A stretch of DNA of 64,000 bases from Squalus acanthias (Eukaryota): assembly GCA_030390025.1 (NCBI GenBank), contig CM059431.1, forward strand, positions 124,808,001-124,872,000, in the 5' to 3' direction. Numbering within the stretch: the stretch's first letter is position 1; each line of letters begins with the position of its first letter. The notes under the pieces were generated by a model, which made no database searches, was not told the origin of the DNA, and worked only from the letters and a program-made list of their open reading frames with translations. A program made the translations under genes and the position numbers. Shown in pieces: positions 1 through 59,420 of the stretch.

Positions 1-2444
1 CACTTAACAGCCCAAGCCTGAACGTCGGACAGGTCTTGTTGCATGCGGGCATGGACTACTTCATTATCTGAGGAGTTGTGAATGGCACTGAACACTGTGC
101 AGTCATCAGCGAACATCCGCATTTCTGACCTTATGTTGAAGGGAAGGTCATTGATGAAGCAGCTGAAGATGTTTGGGCCTAGGACACTGCCCTGAGGAAC
201 TCCTGCAGCGATGTCCTGGGGCTGTGATGATTGACCTTCAACCACCACAACCATCTACCTTTCTGCTAGGCATGACTCCAACCAGTGGAGTGCTTTCCCC
301 CTGATTCTCATTGACTTCAGTTTTACTAGGGCTCCTTGATGCCAGACTCGGTCAAATGCTGCCTTGATGTCAAGGGCAGTCACTCTCAAATCACCTCTGG
401 AATTCAGCTCCTTTGTCCATGTTTGGACCAAGGCTGTAATGAGGTCGGGAGCCGAATGGTCTTGGTGGAACCCAAACTGGGCATCAGTGAGCAGGTGCCA
501 CTTAATAGCACTGTCGATGACACCTTCCATCACTTTGCTGATGATTGAGAGTAGACTGATGAGGCGATAATTGGTCGGGTTGGATTTGTCCAGCTTTTTG
601 TGGACAGGACATACCTGGGCAGTTTTCCACATTGTCGGATAAATGCCAGTGTTGTAGCTGTAATGGAACAGCTTGGCTAGAGGTGCGGCTAGTTCTGGAG
701 CACAAGTCTTCAGCACGATAGCCGGGATGTTGTCGGGGCCCATAGCCTTTGCTTTATCCAGTACGCTCAGCCGTTTCTTGATATCACGTGGAGTGAATCG
801 AATTGGCTGAAGAGTGGCTTCTGTGATAGTGGGGACCTCAGGAGTAGGCCGATATGGATCATCCACTCGGCACTGCTGGCTGAAGTTGGTTGCAAACACT
901 TCAGCCTTGTCTTTTGCACTCACGTGCTGGGCTCCACCATCATTGAGGATGGGGATATTCTTGGAGCCTCCTCCTCCCATTAGTTGTTCAATGGTCCACC
1001 ACCATTCACGACTGGATGTGGCAGGACTGCAGAGCTTTGATCTGATCCGTTGATTGTGGGATCGCTTAGCTCTTTCTATAGCGTGCTGCTTCCGCTTTTT
1101 AGCATGCATGTAGTCCTGTGTTGCAGCTTCCACACCTCATTTTTAGGTACACCTGGTGTTGCTCCTGGCATGCTCTTCTGCACTCCTTGTTGAACCCCTG
1201 GCTTGGTGGTAATATGCCAGGCCATGAGGTTACAGATTGTGGTGGAATACAATTCTGCACCTGCTGATGGCCCACAGTGCCTCATGGATGCCCAGTTTTG
1301 AGCTGTTAGATCTATCCCATTTAGCAAGGTGGTAGTGGCACACAACACGATGGAGGGTGTTCTCAGTGTGAAGACGGGACTTCGTCTCCACAATGGCTGT
1401 GCGGTGTTCACTGCTGCCAATGAAAGATGCATCTGCGACAGGTAGATTGGTGAGGACGAGGTCAAGTATGTTTCTCCCTCATGTTGGTTCACTCACCACC
1501 TGTCGCAGGCCCAGACTGGCAGCTATTTCCTTCAGGACTCAGCCAGTAGTGGTGCTACCGAGCCAATCGTGCTGATGGACATTGAAGTCTCCCACCCAGA
1601 GTACATTCTGTGCCCTTGCTACTCTCAGTGCTTCTTCCACAATGTGTTCAACATGGAGGAATACTGATTCATCAGCTGATGGGTGGCGGTAGGTGGTAAT
1701 CAGCAGGAGGCTTCCTTGCCCATGCTTGAACTGAAGCCATTAGACTTCATGGGGTCTGGAGTCAATGTTGAGGACTCCCAGGGCCACTCCTTCCCGACTG
1801 TATACCACTATGCCGCCACCCCTGGTGGGTCTGTCCTGCCGATGGGACAAGACATACCCAGGGATGGTGATGGAGGAGTTTGGGACATTGGCTGAAAGGT
1901 ATGATTCTGTGAGTATGACTATGTCAGGCTGTTGCTTGACTAGGCTGTGGGACAGCTCTCCCAATTTTGGCACACGTCCCCAGATGTTGGTGAGGAAGAC
2001 TTTGCAGGGTTGATTGGGCTGGGTGTGCCGTTGCCATGTCCGTAGCCGATGCCAAGGTCGATGCCGGGTGGTCCGTCTGGTTTCATTCTTATTATTTTGT
2101 TTCGTAGCAGTTAGTTACAACTGAGTGGTTTGCTAGACCATTTCAGAGGGCAGTTAAGAGTCAACCACATTGCTGTGGGTCTGGAGTCACATATAGGCCA
2201 GAGCAGGTAAGGACGGCAGATTTCCTTCCCTAAAGGACATTAGTGAACCAGATGGGTTTTTTACGACAATCCGATAGTTTTATGGTTACCATTACTGATA
2301 CTAGCTTTTTATTCCAGATTTATTTATTAACTGAATTTAAATTCCCCAGCTGCCATGGTGGGATTTGAACTAACGTTTCTGGATCATTAGTCCAGGCCTC
2401 TGGATTACTAGCCCAGTGACATTACCACTACGCTACCGTTCCCC
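1..2444 (-). mobile_element. CR1-group LINE, copy A: tRNA-derived 5' head, then APE endonuclease and RT; 3' part runs out of the window
   Basis: Minus-strand ORFs 1740..1973 (APE: PDIVILTESYL...RQDR...GGG) and 255..1133 (RT: AMGPDNIP, QFGF, ALDIKAAFDRVWH); 5' end reads GGGGAACGGTAGCGTAGTGG; homologous along its length to copy B. Confidence 0.93.
2361..2435 (-). promoter_or_regulatory. Type-2 Pol III internal promoter (A box + B box) at the 5' end of LINE copy A
   Basis: Sense A box TAGCGTAGTGG (2435-2425) fits TRGCNNAGYGG; B box GTTCAAATCC (2370-2361) fits GTTCRANNC; copy B keeps the B box at 2483-2492. Confidence 0.85.
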
Positions 2445-2447
2445 TTG

Positions 2448-5400
2448 ATCCAGAGGCCTCGACTAATGATCCAGAGACATGAGTTCAAATCCCACCACAG
2501 CAGCTGGGGAATTTAAATTCAGTTAATTAAATCAAACTGGAATAAAAACCTAGTAACAGTAATGGTAACCATGAAACTATCGGATTGTTGTAAAAACCCA
2601 TCTGGTTCACTAATGTCATTTAGGGAAGGAAATCTGCCGTCCTTACCTGGTCTGGCCTATATGTGACTCCGGACCCACAGCAATGTGGTTGACTCTTAGC
2701 TGCCCTCTGAAATGGCCTTGCAAGCCACTCAGTTGTAACAAACCGCTGCGAAACACAACTGGATGGATCACCCGGCATCGACCACGGCACCGGCTACGGA
2801 CACGGCAATCACACACCCAGCCCAGTCGAACCTGCAAAGTCCTCCTCACCAACATCTGGGGACTTGTGCCAAAATTGGGAGAGCTGTCCCACAGACGAGT
2901 CAAGCAGCAGCCTGACATAGTCATATGCACAGAATCATACCTTTCAGCCAATGTCCCAAACTCCTCCATCACCATCCGGCAGGTTTGCCAGGACACACCC
3001 AGGGATGGTGGCACAGTGGCCCTGGGAGTCCTCAACATTGACTCCAGAAGTCTCATGTCTTCAGGTCAAGCATGGGCAAGAAAACCTCCTGCTGATTACC
3101 ACCTATCGCCCCCCCTCAGTTGATAAATCAGTACTCCTCCATATTGAACATCACATCATTTGGAAGAAGCGGTGAGAGTAGCAAGGGCACAGAAAGTACT
3201 CTGGGTGGGGGACTTCAATGTCCATCAGCACGATTGGCTCGGTCGCACCACTATTGACCGAGCTGCCTGAGTCCTGAAGGACATAACTGCCAGTCTGGGC
3301 CTGCGACAGGTGGTGAGAGAACCAACATGAAGGAAAAGCCTACTTGACCTCGTCCTCAGCAATCTACCTGTTGCAGATACATCTGTCCATGACAGTAGTG
3401 GTAGCAGTGACCACCGCAGAGTCATTGTGGAGAGGAGGTTCCGTCTTCACACTGAGGACACCCTCCATCATGTTGTGAGGCACTACCACTGTGCTAAATG
3501 GGATAGATTCAGAACTGATCTAGCAGCTCAAAACTGGGCATCCATGAGGCACTGTGGGCCATCAGCAGGTGCAGAATTGTATTCCAACACAATCTGTAAC
3601 CTCATGGCCCGGCATATCCCTCACTCTACCATTACCATAAAGCCAGGGGACCAACCCTGGTTCAATAAGGAGTGTGGAAGAGCATGCCAGGAGCAGCACC
3701 AGGCATATCTAAAAATGAGGTGCCAACCTGGGGAAGCTGCAACACAGGACTACATGCATGCTAAAAAGCGGAAGCAGCATGCTATAGACAGGGCTAAGCG
3801 ATCCCACAATCAACGGAGCAGATCAAAGCTCTGCAGTCCTGCCACATCCAGTCATGAATGGTGGTGGATCATTAAACAACTAACGGGAGAAGGCGGATCC
3901 ATCAAAATACCCATCCTCAATGATGCTGGAGCCCAGAACGTGAGTGCAAAAGTCAAGGTTGAAGCATTTGCAACCATCTTCAGCCAGAAGTGCCGAGTGG
4001 ATAATCCATATCAGCCTACTCCTGAGGTCCCCATCATCACAGATGCCAGTCTTCAGCGAATTTGATTCACTCCACATGATATCAAGAAACAGCTGAACAC
4101 ACTGGATACAGCAAAGGCTATGGGCCCCAACAACATCCCGGAATCGTGCTGAAGACTTTTGCTCCAGAACTAGCCGCGCCTCTAGCCAAGCTGTTCCAGT
4201 ACAGCTACAACACTGGCATCTAACCGACAATGTGGAAAACTGCCTAGGTATGTTCTCTCCACAAAAACCAGGACAAATCCAACTTGGCCATTTACCGCCT
4301 CATCAGTCTACTCTCAATCATCAGCAAAGTGATGGAAGGTGTCATCGACAGTGCTATCCAGCGGCACTTACTCACCAAAAACCTGCTCACTGATGCCCAG
4401 TTTGGGTTCCGCCAAGACCACTTGGCTCAAGACCTTGTTACAGCCTTAGTCCAAACATGGGCAAAAGAGCTGAATTCCAGAGGTGAGATGAGAGTGACTG
4501 CCCTTGACATCAAGGCAACATTTAACCGAGTGTGGCATCAAGGAGCCCAAGTAAAACTGAAGTCAATGGGAATTGGGGGGAAAACGCTCCACTGGCTGGA
4601 GTCATACCTAGCTCAAAGAAAGATGGTTGTGGTGGTTGAAGGTCAATCATCACAGCCCCAGGACATCGCTGCAGGAGTTCCTCAGGGCAGTGTCCTAAGC
4701 CCAACCATCTTCAGCTGCTTCATCAATGACCTTCCCTCCAACATAAGGTCAGAAATGGGGTTGTTCGCTGATGACTGCACAGTGTTTAGTGCCATTCATA
4801 ACTCCTCAGATAATGAAGCAGTCCATGCCCACATGCAACAAGACCTGGACGATGTTCAGGCTTGGGCTGATAAGTGGCAGGTAACATTCATGCCACAGAA
4901 GTGTCAGGCAATGACTATCTCCAACAAGCGAGAGTCTAACCACCTCCCCTTGACATTCAATTGCTTCACCATCACCGAATCCCCCACCATCAACATCCTG
5001 GGGGGTCACCATTGACCAGAAACTTAACTGGACCAGCCATATAAATATTGTGGCAACAAGAGCAGGTCAGAGGCCTGGTATTCTGCAGCGAGTGTTTCAC
5101 CTTCTGACTCCCCAAAGCCTTTCCAACATCTACAAGGCACAAGTAAGGAGTGTGATGGAATACTCTCCACTTGCCTGGATGAATGCAGCTCCAAGAACAC
5201 TCAAGAAGCTCGACACCATCAAGGACAAAGCAGCCCGCTTGATTGACACCCCATCTACCACCTTAAACATTCACTCCCTCCACCACAGGCATACCGTGGC
5301 TGCAGTGTGCACCATCTACAAGATGCACTGCAGCAACTCGCCAAGGCTTCTTCGGCAGCACCTCCCAAACCCGCGACCTCTTCCACCTAGAAGGACAAGG

Positions 5401-5680
5401 GCAGCAAGCGCATGAGAACACCACCACCTCCAAATTCCCCTCCAATTCACACACCATCCTGACTTAGAAGTATATCGCCAATCCTTCATCGTCGCTGGAT
5501 CAAAGTCCTGGAACTCCCTCCCTAACAGCACTGTGGGAGTACCTTCACCACACGGACTTCAGCGGTTCAAGAAGGCGGCTCACCACCACCTTCTCAAGGG
5601 CAATTAGGGTTGGGCAATAAATGCTGGCCTTGCCAGCGATGCCCATATCCCATAAACGAATAATAAAAAAATAAAAAAAA
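2448..5680 (+). mobile_element. CR1-group LINE, copy B: near full length (~3.2 kb), lacks first ~40 nt including the A box; 3' stem-loop and A-rich tail
   Basis: Continuous APE-RT remnants; 3' end GCTGGC-CTT-GCCAGC hairpin inside a GGG..TGGGCA/TGCCCA..CCC stem, then AATAATAAAAAAATAAAAAAAA. Confidence 0.94.
2839..5607 (+). pseudogene. Single APE endonuclease + reverse transcriptase ORF of LINE copy B, broken by frameshifts and stops
   Basis: VLLTNIWGL, TESYL, YRPP, VGDFN, LDLV, SDH (APE); GVPQGSVL, FINDL, LFADD (RT); ends HHHLLKGN* at 5605-5607. Confidence 0.92.
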
Positions 5681-9000: not shown

Positions 9001-11327
9001 AGATAGGTATGAGGGGCGACTTGGCTAAGGTACATTGGGAAACTACATTAAAAGATACAATAGTTAGAGAAGCAATGGCTAGCTTTTAAAGAATAAATAC
9101 ATAATTTACAACACATATACATTCCTTTAAGGCACAAAATCCCCACAGGAAAAGTGATCCAACTGTGGCTAACAAGAGAAGTTAAAGATAGTATTAGATC
9201 AAAGGAAGAGGCTTATAATGTTGCCAAAAAGAGTAGTAAACCTGAGGATTGGGAGGATTTTAGAATTCAGCAAAGGAGGACCAAGAAATTGATAAAGAAA
9301 GGGAAAACATAATATGAGAATAAACTAGCGAGAGACATAAAAACAGATTATAAAAGCATCTATAGATATGTAAAAACAAAAAGATTAATGAAAGTAAATG
9401 TGGGTCCATTACAGGCTGAGACAGGAGAAATTATTATGGGAAATAAGGAAATTGCAGAGAAATTAAACAAATCCTTTGGGCTGGATTTTGCCAATGGGAG
9501 CGCGTTGGAGGTGGGACTGCTGCTTGTCGGGTTTCAGTCCTGCCTCCATTGACTTCTGGCCAAACCATGCTATTTTCCCTTGATTGACCTTGTTAAGACT
9601 GCCCAGCGACTCTCCAGGGCTGGCAAAATCCAACCCAGTGTGCCTGTCTTCACGGAAGAAGACGCAAAAACCTTCCCGGAAATAGTGGAGAACCAAAGGT
9701 CTAGCGAGAATGAGGAACTGAAGGAAATTAATATTAATAAATAAATAGTATTGGAGAAATTAATGGGACTGAAAGTTAATAAATCCCCAGGACCTGATGG
9801 CCTACATCCTAGGGTTTTGAAAGAGTTGGCTATAGAGATAGTGGATGCATTGGTTGTCATTTTCCAAAATTCCATTGATTCTGGAACAGTTCCCGCGGAT
9901 TGGAAGTTAGCAATGTAACCCCATTATTTAAGAAAGGAGGGAGAGGGAAAATGGGGAACTACAGACCAGTTAGCCTGACATCAGTAGTAGGGAAAATGCT
10001 AGAATCTATTATTAAGGACATGGTAACAGGGCACTTGGATAATAATAATAAGATTGAGCAGAGTCAACATGGATTTATGAAAGGGAAATCGTGTTTGATG
10101 AATCTGTTAGTTTTTTGAGGTTGTAACTAGCAGAATAGATAAGGGGGAACCAGTGGATGTGGTGTATTTGGATTTTCAGAAGGCATTTGATAAGGTGCCA
10201 CACAAGAGGTTATTAAACAAAATTAGGGCTCATGGGATTGGGGGTAATTTACTAGCATGGATTGAGGATTGATTAATTGGCAGAAATGGAGAGTAGGAAT
10301 AAATGGGTCATTTTCGGGTTGGCAGGCTGTAACTAGTGGGGTACTGCAAGGATCAGTGCTTGGGCCTCAGCTATTCACAATCTATATCAATGACTTGGAT
10401 GAGGGGACCAAATGTAATATATCCAAGTTTGCAGATGATACAAAGCTGGGTGGGAATGTAAGTTGTGAGGAGGATGCAAAGAGGCTTCAAGGGGATATAG
10501 ACAGGCTAAGTGAGTGAGTAAGAACATGGCAAATGTAATATAATGTGGAGGAATGTGAAGTTATCCACTTTGGTAGGAAAAATAGAAAAGCAGAGTATTT
10601 TTTAAATGGTGAGAGATTGGAAAATGTTGGTGTTCAGAGGGACCTGGGTGTCCTTATACACGAATCACTGAAAGCTAGCATGCAGGTACAGTAAGCAATT
10701 GGGAAGACAGGTGGTGTGTTGGCCTTTATTGTAGGAGGATTTGAGTATAAGAGTAGAGACGTCTTACCGCAATTATATAGGGCCCTGGTGAGACCACACC
10801 TGGAGTATTGTGTACAGTTTTGGTCTCCTTGCCTAGGGAGGGATATACTTGCCATAGAGGGAGTGCAACAAATGTTCAGCAGACTGATTCCTGGGATGGG
10901 GGGATTGTCTTGTGAGGAGAGATTGATTGTCTGGGCCTATATTCTCCAGAGTGAAGAGAAATGAGAGGTGATTTCATTGAGGCATGCAGGGTTCTTGCAT
11001 GGCTTGGCGGGGTGGATGCAGGGATGATGTTTCTCCTGACTGGGGAGTCTAGAACCAGGGGTCACAGTCTCAGAATGAGGGGTCGGCCATTTAGGACTGA
11101 GATGATGATAAATTTCTTCCCTCAGAGGGTGGTGAATCTTTGGAGTTCTCTGCCCCGGAGGGCTGTGGAGGCTCAGTCGTTGAGTGTATTGGATGGATTT
11201 TTGGATGTTGGGGGAGTCGAGGGATGTGGGGATGTTGCAGGAGGGTGGAGTTGAGGTGGAAGATTAGCCATGAAATTATTGAATTGCTCGAGGGGCCAAA
11301 TGACCTACTCCTGCTCGTATTTCTTAT
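9001..11327 (+). mobile_element. CR1 LINE (RT and 3' end) inserted into a SINE
   Basis: ORFs 9900..10118 (GNYRPVSLTS, SQHGFMKGKSC), 10269..10517 (QGSVLGP, FADDTK), 10716..10964 (LVRPHLEYCVQFWSP). Confidence 0.93.
9478..9636. mobile_element. 159-bp Harbinger-type MITE nested in CR1
   Basis: 16-bp terminal inverted repeats (TIRs) GGGCTGGATTTTGCCA / TGGCAAAATCCAACCC (1 mismatch). Confidence 0.85.
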
Positions 11328-17400: not shown

Positions 17401-17659
17401 CAGCACTCTATTTTCATTTCTTTAAAGTACTCTTGGAAAAATGCTATATAGTTCTATTCGCATATGGGCATTCAAACACTCCTATTTTTTGTTCCAATTC
17501 TCTCCCCTTTTCTTGCTTTCTCTTCCGAAGCTGATTGCTTAGGCTGAAATATGGTCTGGTACCTCACTCAAGTGCTCACCCTTTGCATGCAAGGCAGACT
17601 AATCAAATGCTTCTTGCGTTTTGTGTGGCTGCACTCATCCAGGCAAATGGTGAATATTC

Positions 17660-20080
17660 TGGTACACTCCTGACCTGAGCTTTAGATGGTGGAGAAGCTT
17701 TGGGAGGTGAGCAACTCATTACTAAATACCCAGCCTTGGCCCTGCCCTTGTAGCTAATGTGATGATATGGCTAGTGCAATTAAGCTTCTGGTTAATGGTG
17801 ATCCCTAGGATGTTGATAGCGAAGGGCTTGGTGATAATTGTGCCATAGAAGGTCAGGGGAGATGGCTGAGCTTTCTCTTGTTCAAAATGGTTATTGCATG
17901 GCATTTACGTGGTGTGGATGTTACCTGCTATTTGTCAGCCCAGGTTTGGATATTGTCCAACTCCTGCTGTAGGTTAGCATGGGCTGCTTCTTTATCAGAG
18001 GATTTGTAAATGCAGCTGAGCTCTGCAGAATCATCGGTGAACAACCCAATTCCTGACTTTACAATAGGGGAATGGTGTTTATGAATCAGCTGAAGATGGA
18101 TTGGCCAAGGACGCTTCCCTGAGGAACTCCTGCAGCAATATCCTGGAGTTACAATGATTTGCCAATGACAGGCATAACCATCTTCTTTTGTGTCAAGTAA
18201 GCCACTGTAAAATTTTCCTTTTGACCTCCATTGACCTCAGTTTTGCCATGGCAACTTGATGTTCCACTCACTCGAATGCTGCATTTATATCAAGGACAGC
18301 AACGTTCACCTGTAAAGTTTCGCAATTATCGCGATTCGAAATAACAAGAGAGAAGCAGATTCGTTTGATCAGTTTTATTAAACGAAATGCTGTCCTGATA
18401 ATAAAGGACACAGAAGACTGTAAAATGGCCGCCGCGCATCGTGGCAGAAGCTTCCAGAGATACAGTGGGCAGACAAGATGGCGTTGAATAAACATTCAAT
18501 ATAAGATTGGATCATACTCGATAAACACTGATAAAGACAGGATGCAACCCGTTTGCATTTGTGACAATAGCAAAGATATAAGTGCTGGAATCATTTTCCA
18601 TGCACAAGTAAGGACCATTGTACTGGGCAATCGAAGGCCCATCCAGACACATCAATACACAAATACCCCCACGGCTCTACAATGAGAGAGACATTGACGG
18701 GTGATTAAGCAAGTATTCGGGGGCCCCCAAAACCAGTCAGGGAGACGATTCATACGATCCTGGCTGGGTCAACAATGGGGAAAACATTAACGGATAGTTG
18801 GCCAGTTTCAGGTGCTACCGAAACCCGTTAAAGAGAAGAATCGCCCCATGCTGGGAGTTTTGAGCGCCAATATTACACAAAGGACAAACATTAAGATTTG
18901 AGCGGGAGATAAGGGAACACAGCACTATAACTATAGTGAACAAATGTCCATCGGTCTCTTGATTCGACTCTTATTCTCCCGGCTGGCTCTGATCCTCGGG
19001 TATTGCTCTGCTGGACGAGCAGCCCTCTGTGTTTCTCTGGACTTTGTTGACTCTTGACTCTTAGCCGTACTGGTCGGTTATTCGAATGTTGGGTGGAGCT
19101 CACTCGGAACGAGCCGACCCGAAAAGGGCAAGTAACCGGGTGCACCATCCCGAGTGTCGGTAAACGGTGTCTGGACCCGAAGGCCCGAAGAGACGAGACG
19201 AGACGAGAAGAAGAGGAGAAGAATCCACGTGCCGCCACGGTCAGGAAACCCCGACCGCGCCCGAAAATATAAATACAGAACTCATCTTTGAATTCTACGG
19301 GTTAATGCACGATCCGGTTTGAGTCCTGTCGAGTTCTTCATGACAACAGGGAGTCTGGCCTGCTTGTTGCAGCAGCGAAAATAAACAAGTTGGGTACAGA
19401 GACCCTTCCAAACACGTGACAGTCAGGCGCTGCAGCGAAACGAGCCGAGTGCCTCACTTTAAAATTCTCCGAAGTAACACGAGCGGTGAGCATGTTTCCC
19501 GATCCTACAAATCTAGACGTAGTGTAGGTATTGTTAAGGGAGGGTGGTTATTAAGGTTAAAGTATAATGTGTTCCCCTTTTTACGATGTGCCGTGCGTTC
19601 TTCATTTCCATAGACCAAGCTTTATGAATGTATGTATACTTGTACTCTCGTTAATTTGTGCCTATGACATGTACTTCATGATTTTGGACGCTATGCAATA
19701 AAGATTTCCATTTTGTACTATTCAACCGGGTCTATTTGAGTTTTCTCTGCATTACTGCTCCCTGCACCTAAGTCCAGTGTTAGAACCGTAAGGGCGAGTG
19801 GGTCGAACCACTCACAGGTGCTTATTGCAATAAGGCTGGCCGGAGACCAGAGCAAGCAATAGTATTAGGCAACGAAGGCCTAACCTCGCACCAGCACCGT
19901 CTGAGACACAGGCACAAACCCTTACACACCACTTCTTCCATATTCAACTCTTGTATCCACGATGGGATCAAGGTGGGAATAAGCTCTGGACATGACTGAT
20001 TCTTAAAGTAAGCATTGGTGAGCATGTTATTGATCGTCATATGCTGCTTGATGGTACCACTAATGACACCTGCCATCATG
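17660..20080 (-). mobile_element. Older, degenerate copy of the same LINE family as copies A/B (RT region), split by a solo LTR at 18311-19926
   Basis: CCCTGAGGAACTCCTGCAGC and AVLDINAAFE before the LTR; GVISGTIKQH...LTNAYF after it, contiguous in LINE coordinates. Confidence 0.8.
18311..19926 (+). mobile_element. Solo LTR, 1616 bp (ERV or Gypsy type)
   Basis: TGTAA...TTACA termini; perfect 4-bp TSD CACC (18307-18310 / 19927-19930); TATA-like ATATAAA ~19267; AATAAA ~19697; no internal genes. Confidence 0.88.
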
Positions 20081-58094: not shown

Positions 58095-59420
58095 CTGACA
58101 TACTTGGAGAGGCAAGGATTAATCAAGAATAGTCAGCATGGCTTTGTCAGGGGGAGATCATGTCGACCCAATTTGATTGAATTTTTCGAGGGGGCGACTA
58201 GGTGTGTGGATGAGGGTAGTGCATTTGATGTAGTCTACATGGACTTCAGTAAGGCTTTTTGACAAAGGCCCCGCATGGGAGACTGGTCAAGAAGGTAAGA
58301 GCCCATGGGATCCAGGGCAATTTGGCACATTGGATCCAAAATTAGCTTAGTGGCAGGAGGCAGAGGGTGATGGTCGAAGGTTGTTTTTGTGGCTGGAAGC
58401 CTGTGTCCAGTGGTGTACCGCAGGGATCGGTGCTGGGTCCCTTGCTGTTTGTAGTGTACATTAATGATTTAGATATGAATGTAGGAGGTATAATCAGTAA
58501 GTTTGCAGATGACACGAAAATTGGTGGAGTGGTAAATAGCGAGGAGGGAAGCCTCAGGCTACAGGACGATATAGACGGGTTGGTCAGATGGGCAGAACAT
58601 TGGCAAATGGAATTTAACCCTGAAAAGTGTGAGGTGATGCATTTTGGGAGGACTAACAGGGCAAGGGAATACACAATGAATGGTCGGACCCTAGGAAGGA
58701 CAGTGGATCAGAGGGACCTTGGTGTGCATGTACATAGATCCCTGAAGGCAGCAGGACAGGTAGATAAGGTGGTTCAGAAGGCATATGGGATACTTGCCTT
58801 CATTAGCCGAGGCATAGAATATAAGAGCAGGGAGGTTATGATGGAGCTGTACAAAACGCTAGTTCGGCCACAGCTGGAATACTGTGAGCAGTTCTGGTTG
58901 CAACACTATAAGAAGGATGTGATTGCATTAGAGAGGGTGCAGAGGAGATTCACCAGGATGCTACCTGGGCTGGAGCGTATCAGCTATGAAGAGAGACTGG
59001 ACAGGCTGGGGTTGTTTTCCTCAGAGCAGAGAAGGCTGAGGGGGACATGATTGAGGTGTACAAAATTATGAGGGCATAGATAGGGTAGATAGAAAGGAAC
59101 TTTTCCCCTTAGTAGAGGGTTCAATAACCAGGGGGCATAGTTTCAAGGTAAGGGGCAGGAGGTTTAGAGGAGATTTGAGGAAAAACCTTTTCACCCAGAG
59201 GGTGGTTGGAATCTGGAACTCACTGCCTGAAAGCGTGGTAGAGGCAGGAACCCTCACAACATTCAAGAAGCATTTAGATGAGCACTTGAAACGCCATAGC
59301 ATACAAGGCTACGGACCAAGTGCTGGAAAATGGGATTAGAATAGATAGGGCTTGATGGCCGGCGCGGACACGATGGGCCAAAGGGCCTCTTTCTGTGCTG
59401 TACAACTCTATGCCTCTATA
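58095..59420 (+). mobile_element. CR1 LINE RT and 3' end, relatively young
   Basis: ORF 58367..59050 (SGVPQGSVLGP, KFADDTKIGG, LVRPQLEYC); tail CTCTATGCCTCTAT. Confidence 0.93.

Follow-up and report, generated by a model that had tools for sequence, protein, structure and literature searches.

At the left end of a 64,000-nucleotide stretch of the 3.7-Gb genome of Squalus acanthias (GCA_030390025.1, contig CM059431.1, positions 124,808,001 to 124,872,000; hereafter the window), bases 1-5680 consist of two copies of one repeat arranged head to head. The repeat is a long interspersed nuclear element (LINE) in which a tRNA-like head with A and B boxes precedes an open reading frame (ORF) for an endonuclease and a reverse transcriptase (RT), and most full-length copies begin at the same point just upstream of the A box. 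Across the family the sense strand has no shared internal run of four Ts. This absence is unusual among LINEs and lies clearly below the expectation from base composition. Vertebrate RNA polymerase III (Pol III) terminates at four or more Ts, and the first-pass annotation of the window had proposed selection for Pol III read-through of a 3-kb coding RNA. We consider such selection the best single explanation, with belief and doubt about evenly balanced. Below, T4 and A4 denote runs of four Ts or As, and T4+ a run of four or longer.

A LINE family with a tRNA-like head

The two copies are laid out in the window as follows.

1-2444, minus strand: copy A, covering 2.4 kb from the 5' end of the element (head and body, then the endonuclease and an incomplete RT) and crossing the left edge of the window; 0 sense T4
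2356-2444, minus strand: tRNA-like head of copy A, with A box TAGCGTAGTGG and B box GTTCAAATCC; the element starts a few bases upstream of the A box
700-708, minus strand: site in copy A homologous to 4157-4160, reading GACTTGTGC in sense (GCACAAGTC on the plus strand)
2448-5680, plus strand: copy B, a near-complete element whose head lacks the first ~35 bases; one private sense T4
2448-2745, plus strand: remainder of the copy B head and ~220-base body, the 5' part common to a short SINE-like form (SINE, short interspersed nuclear element)
2749-5607, plus strand: single ORF region of copy B (apurinic/apyrimidinic (AP) endonuclease and RT), located by tblastn; ~970 amino acids (aa) in the family, with frameshifts and stops here
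4157-4160, plus strand: the only sense TTTT of copy B, with a copy-specific T at 4159
5616-5621, plus strand: AATAAA, ~40 bases ahead of the terminal T and A runs
5661-5680, plus strand: 3' terminus of copy B, with GAA, a T-run (T1 here, T1 to at least T5 in others) and an A-rich run

At the junction of the two copies (window 2436-2450) the head is complete in copy A and ~35 bases short in copy B; the insertion of either copy into the other's head is possible.

A query spanning the head-to-ORF junction returned 5828 candidates in the genome, and 40 of the 40 that were scored are ~90% identical across the junction. End-to-end alignment to copy B, over 3.2-3.3 kb, was obtained for 18 of 39 loci, the others being internally deleted or interrupted. 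Given these junction matches and the 18 end-to-end copies, the 3.25-kb unit is a real family. Its order is a head (GGGAACGG, A box TAGCGTAGTGG, B box GAGTTCAAATCC), a ~220-base body, an ORF from ~292 to ~3200 and a 3' end composed of AATAAA, ~40 bases, GAA, a T-run and an A-run. Pfam recognizes Exo_endo_phos (7.4e-11), Exo_endo_phos_2 (8.8e-12) and RVT_1 (1.1e-34) in family copies, and three copies supply overlapping ORF pieces of 329, 405 and 537 aa that span element positions 293-3201.

Judged by the A- and B-box consensus motifs, the head has an A box (TRGCNNAGTGG) and a GGTTCGANNCC-like B box at tRNA-like spacing; in most heads TAGCGTAGTGG and GAGTTCAAATCC stand ~50 bases apart, and the variants of the boxes resemble CpG decay. 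The Rfam tRNA model matches the head of locus L047 weakly (22.3 bits, below the gathering score of 29; E 0.73), aligning the D and T arms with a 22-base insert. ARAGORN reported no tRNA in the window or in 49 loci, which is uninformative as it missed the family's own head too.

Most full-length copies have a common 5' end. In 15 of 18 the element starts at the same point, a few bases ahead of the A box TAGCGTAGTGG, the sequence upstream of this start is unrelated between copies, and the remaining 3 of 18 lack the first ~35 bases. For a promoter of the tRNA type, the transcription start would be expected at this common point. Four 5'-truncated copies (L070-L073) start at element positions 1287-2094 and reach the 3' end, and depth increases towards the 3' end; none of the four adjoins a head. 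Target-site duplications were sought in 15 head-bearing copies and one is clear (L036, 8 bases).

The family also has a short form of ~400 bases, in which the first ~290 bases are joined to the last 85-125 bases. Contigs of this form from runs X1, X2 and X10 join 2733-2747 to 5554-5596, and in contigs the depth of head and body is ~10 times, and that of the tail ~50 times, the depth of the ORF. The tail of the short form is the LINE's own end, since this 3' part starts at 5554-5596 and the LINE ORF continues to ~5604. The common start, the headless truncated copies and the ORF-derived tail of the short form together argue for the head being part of the LINE and not a target into which the LINE inserted. 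Short head-plus-tail SINE forms are Pol III-driven.

Separately, loci L052, L054, L060 and L065 carry extensive internal deletions, with 5' and 3' parts joined at varied points, and may represent stages intermediate between LINE and short form.

Absence of internal T4 runs

The counts in the first-pass annotation hold. It had described copy A as free of sense T4, copy B as having one such run peculiar to that copy, and both antisense strands as rich in T4+. Copy A has no AAAA on the plus strand over 1-2444, that is, no sense T4, and its antisense strand has 12 T4+ runs. In copy B the one sense T4 is that at 4157-4160; of its 18 T4+ runs on the antisense strand, two fall within the A-rich tail. 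The TTTT of copy B is private, because the family majority at 4159 is G, not T, in contigs from 4 of 4 runs; copy A also differs at the homologous site, and the corresponding column has T4 in only 2 of 39 copies.

The same holds throughout the family. Of 20 copies, 15 are without any sense T4, and the count is one in four others and two in the last. No column has T4 in half or more of the aligned copies; the corresponding number of A4 runs is 15. The 127,373 bases aligned from 46 loci and the window contain 17 T4 and 575 A4, and no internal position has T4 in more than 3 of 39-44 copies. T4 density is 0 in the source copies, which were free of internal T4, and 0.13 per kb in decayed copies.

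We compared the runs with the expectation from base frequencies only, with bases independent and identically distributed (iid). The family's T fraction is 0.202, and the iid expectation is 4.0-4.8 T4 per copy (mean 4.5), for which the probability of finding none, P(0), is ~0.01. The observed/iid ratio is 1.12 for T1, 0.96 for T2, 0.50 for T3 and 0.07 for T4+; for the other bases it is 0.96 (A4+), 0.70 (C4+) and 1.33 (G4+). The depletion is therefore specific to T and stronger for longer runs. The observed/expected frequency of the TT dinucleotide (rho_TT) is 0.73-0.85.

Runs of T4 or longer recur at a single site, the 3' terminus. The T-run that separates GAA from the A-run there is T4 or longer in 12 of 58 copies. 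Its length, most often T1, spans T0-T11 in copies whose neighbouring sequence is otherwise 95% alike (lengths were assigned by script, with five assignments corrected by eye). In L066 and L072, a T10-T11 run at or next to the 3' terminus replaces the usual short T-run and A-run.

T4 runs in other LINEs

Three features of the window served as points of comparison.

9001-11327, plus strand: decayed CR1-like LINE fragment, in-window control; 12 sense T4, rho_TT 1.14
58095-59420, plus strand: CR1 fragment, in-window control; 7 sense T4, with 17 T4 in the near-intact family member L158
17627-18390, minus strand: old relative of the family, an RT fragment only; 50-68% aa and 72% DNA identity, 2 T4 in 801 bases

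The two CR1 fragments agree with the first-pass description of ordinary CR1s in the window as rich in sense T4. For a broader comparison, 80 metagenome loci encoding relatives (25-40% aa identity) were collected; the 52 with an ORF of at least 450 aa were kept and 28 dropped. Three near-intact LINEs of the genome, identified as LINEs by Pfam, bring the controls to 55 ORFs: L076 (T fraction 0.204, 6 T4), L077 (0.208, 8 T4) and L158, of the CR1 family at 58095-59420 (0.220, 17 T4). The 52 metagenome ORFs have T4 observed/iid ratios of 0.43-2.47 and a minimum of 5 T4. All 55 controls have at least 5 T4, and the lowest density is 2.0 T4 per kb. Decayed LINE fragments in the window have a rho_TT of 1.08-1.17, and the lowest control value is 0.81. 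Since controls of similar T fraction do contain T4, low T content alone does not explain its absence. For a control drawn at random and given the length and T content of the family, P(0) is estimated from the control ratios at ~0.01.

The controls also appear to be headless. The closest relative for which DNA is available, L078 (40% aa identity), has 20 T4 in its ORF and no tRNA match in the 949 bases upstream of it. A regular expression for A and B boxes gave one loose match among 82 control loci (L156, inside the ORF region), with the modest sensitivity of 2 in 4 decayed family copies, and Rfam found no tRNA-like head on five controls.

Proposed Pol III read-through and its alternatives

How might these features be related? 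The mechanism that we propose starts from the head, body, endonuclease-RT ORF and short 3' end being retrotransposed as one 3.25-kb piece. The full-length RNA would be made by Pol III from the head. An internal T4 or longer run would truncate the transcript and be selected against; the one site where such runs recur, the 3' terminus, is where a terminator would belong. The absence of T4, the T-specific depletion that grows with run length and the T-runs at the 3' terminus all fit a Pol III unit. The variable length of the terminal run also fits termination inside it followed by addition of A, by analogy with B2-type SINEs. The architecture, the lack of internal T4 throughout the family, the contrast with other LINEs and the common 5' end are observed; that Pol III transcribes the element, that selection acted, that transcripts end in the terminal T-run and that such an RNA is translated we infer from the sequence. 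The complete picture is more tentative than the selection by itself, and we lean somewhat against holding it in every part: an autonomous LINE, transcribed end to end by Pol III and purged of T4, with a T-run terminator and an A-tail, that would be the full-length parent of its SINE by internal deletion.

Several observations weigh against selection for Pol III read-through. Null models that preserve more of the composition expect few T4 to begin with: ~1.9 per element in dinucleotide shuffles (P(0) 0.10-0.22 in T4-free copies), 2.16 per 2.9-kb ORF in synonymous-codon shuffles, 2.35 in codon-order shuffles and ~0.8 by a second-order Markov estimate. Against such nulls a count of zero is unremarkable (P ~0.1-0.45), and against the dinucleotide and synonymous shuffles (P ~0.1-0.15) it is suggestive but not significant; a pooled P from the synonymous shuffles was disregarded, as it treats related copies as independent. 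The comparison also concerns a single family, examined after the fact. Pol III transcripts are uncapped and usually short, and are translatable, though poorly. None of the 18 full-length copies has an intact ORF; open frames of 971 and 920 aa, considered as intact copies, were rejected as chimeras in which a different LINE is joined after approximately element position 2676. At the 3' terminus, the T-run is T0-T3 or the tail irregular in 46 of 58 copies, the AATAAA is also compatible with polyadenylation of a polymerase II (Pol II) transcript, and the variable T-run is consistent too with a Pol II transcript cleaved at varying positions close to a U-rich element. Finally, LINEs are described as using Pol II, and Pol III as holding elements such as SINEs to a few hundred bases (a Repbase curator, in the sections of PMC10886601 and PMC5786205 cited here).

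The first-pass proposal is thus partly supported. The contrast with other LINEs favours it (55 of 55 have at least 5 T4); the shuffles weaken it, expecting ~2 T4 with P(0) ~0.1-0.15. The two kinds of comparison suggested with it, shuffled sequences and LINEs without a head, gave different answers: the shuffles are T4-poor as well, and the headless LINEs are not, so that low T content is insufficient.

The strongest competitor, which we regard as possible but unlikely, is that the absence merely follows from composition. Amino-acid and codon usage would make the sense strand poor in T (0.20) and in TT, zero of ~2 expected T4 would be luck, and the element would depend on Pol II or read-through transcription with the head as a passenger. 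The shuffle expectations (1.9, 2.16 and 2.35) speak for this, and the synonymous shuffles are well calibrated, with a median observed/expected T4 ratio of 1.03 (range 0.53-1.97) in 54 controls. The AATAAA near the 3' end is also in its favour. Low use of TTT and NTT codons is not unique to the head-bearing family, because the headless L076 and L077 show it likewise (Phe-TTT ratio 0.45 in L076, 0.69 in L077 and 0.55 in the family), a further point against selection by Pol III. However, none of the 55 controls comes close to zero T4, even at the lowest density, and the depletion is confined to T and increases with run length. The rho_TT of the family is at or below the control minimum, and a passenger head leaves the 15 of 18 starts just upstream of the A box unexplained.

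A second alternative reverses the order of events: the LINE lineage was poor in T-runs before it gained the head, which enabled its fusion to a Pol III promoter, and no later selection against T4 took place. T3 and TT are depleted too, which resembles an old compositional habit rather than a cut-off at four. We nevertheless find this improbable, as the older relative at 17627-18390 has a rho_TT of 1.12 along with its 2 T4, although it is a decayed copy, and L078 has its 20 T4. A search with this older relative (17600-18400) recovered only 5'-truncated copies of the same family at 72% identity, and no separate sister family.

Avoidance of U-runs for some other reason at the RNA level, such as stability, U-rich destabilising or cleavage elements, or Pol II pausing, would account for a depletion that is strand-specific and visible from T3, but it is absent in the 55 other LINE ORFs and nothing in the analysis points to such a mechanism; we consider it very unlikely. 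Least credible of all, and rejected, is that the LINE inserts at a fixed site in a tRNA-derived SINE, with head and tail being the target and the absence of T4 unrelated to the head: the short head-plus-tail form might suggest this, but all four 5'-truncated copies are headless, the tail of the short form starts within the LINE ORF, and the internal-deletion forms join the head side to the tail side at varied points.

Relation to known elements

The element resembles several known systems without matching any of them. Tail-sharing pairs of a tRNA-derived SINE and a LINE are exemplified in elasmobranchs by HE1 and HER1. Like these tRNA-derived SINEs with a LINE-shared tail (SINE2), the family has an A/B-box head followed by a body, ends in the same 3' sequence as a LINE, is free of internal T4 and includes a short form of head plus tail. 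The difference is that the element is 3.2-3.3 kb long and the same head and body stand on a complete ~970-aa endonuclease-RT ORF; it is thus neither short nor non-coding.

The T+ SINEs of Borodulina and Kramerov, such as rodent B2, are said to have AATAAA and a T-run terminator in an A-rich tail. The family is alike in having an upstream AATAAA and then a short T-run abutting a 3' A-run, but its AATAAA is ~40 bases upstream and most copies have T1-T3.

With LINEs of the CR1/L2/Jockey group the family shares the AP endonuclease and RVT_1 domains, frequent 5' truncation and jockey-like RT features. LINEs are ordinarily transcribed by Pol II from an internal promoter at the 5' end, a position that the tRNA-like head occupies here. 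The CR1 clade is characterized by ORF1 and ORF2 and a 3' microsatellite tail. In contrast, the family has no room for ORF1, a tRNA-like 5' head and a T(n)A(n) end instead of a microsatellite, and its sense strand is T4-free where the genome's abundant CR1 has 17. Its single ORF from ~292, the T(n)A(n) end and the lack of the GDSL esterase domain found in L158 argue against its belonging to the CR1 clade. Protein searches yielded no clade name, the best match being unnamed at 43% identity, and the Atlas label is 'jockey-like'.

According to the cited sections of PMC10886601 and PMC5786205, SINEs are non-coding and 100-700 bp long. Kojima (2024, PMC10886601) describes TRIMp3 and Cassandra, long terminal repeat (LTR) retrotransposons whose Pol III promoter derives from 5S or tRNA. 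They differ from the present family in being non-autonomous and at most 1.3 kb, and the cited part of the same paper argues that their autonomous partners must use Pol II. In the model of SINE origin, as given in the sections cited, a small-RNA head is added to a LINE derivative (Okada and Hamada 1997; Kojima 2018, PMC5786205). The family is similar in combining a head, a LINE 5' part and a LINE 3' part in one element and in having short, internally deleted forms; in the model as cited the head is on a deleted, non-coding LINE, whereas here it is on a full coding LINE. A full-text literature search found no description of a LINE with a tRNA head, and a prior entry in Repbase or Dfam is possible.

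If the Pol III reading is correct, a coding LINE with a tRNA-type promoter would break the division, as drawn in the cited parts of PMC10886601 and PMC5786205, between LINEs transcribed by Pol II and SINEs transcribed by Pol III. It would constitute a natural 3-kb Pol III messenger and a protein-coding Pol III retrotransposon, and would supply the missing full-length intermediate in models of SINE origin from LINEs. The absence of T4 also provides a sequence signature by which similar elements can be sought in other genomes.

Additional observations

Between 14 and 57% of the 31-base words of the stretch are present in runs labelled as eight other organisms; the family or its close kin is therefore common to several species.

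The 971-aa chimeric frame lies in L074, where the endonuclease region of another LINE follows the family copy in a fusion that happens to leave the frame open. Directly upstream of this family copy, a tandem repeat with a unit of ~33 bases occupies L074 3742-4101 on the minus strand.

The CR1 family to which L158 belongs is highly abundant: a first look gave 784,404 candidates, and it has copies that are 94-95% identical in aa sequence. L158 itself has a 1124-aa open frame that combines a GDSL esterase domain, an endonuclease and an RT. Paired RT matches ~7 kb apart, with open frames of 1192-1307 aa, were seen at C4:122058965-122066886, C11:65379635-65387558 and C4:50968271-50976213, and may be tandem or segmentally duplicated young LINEs.

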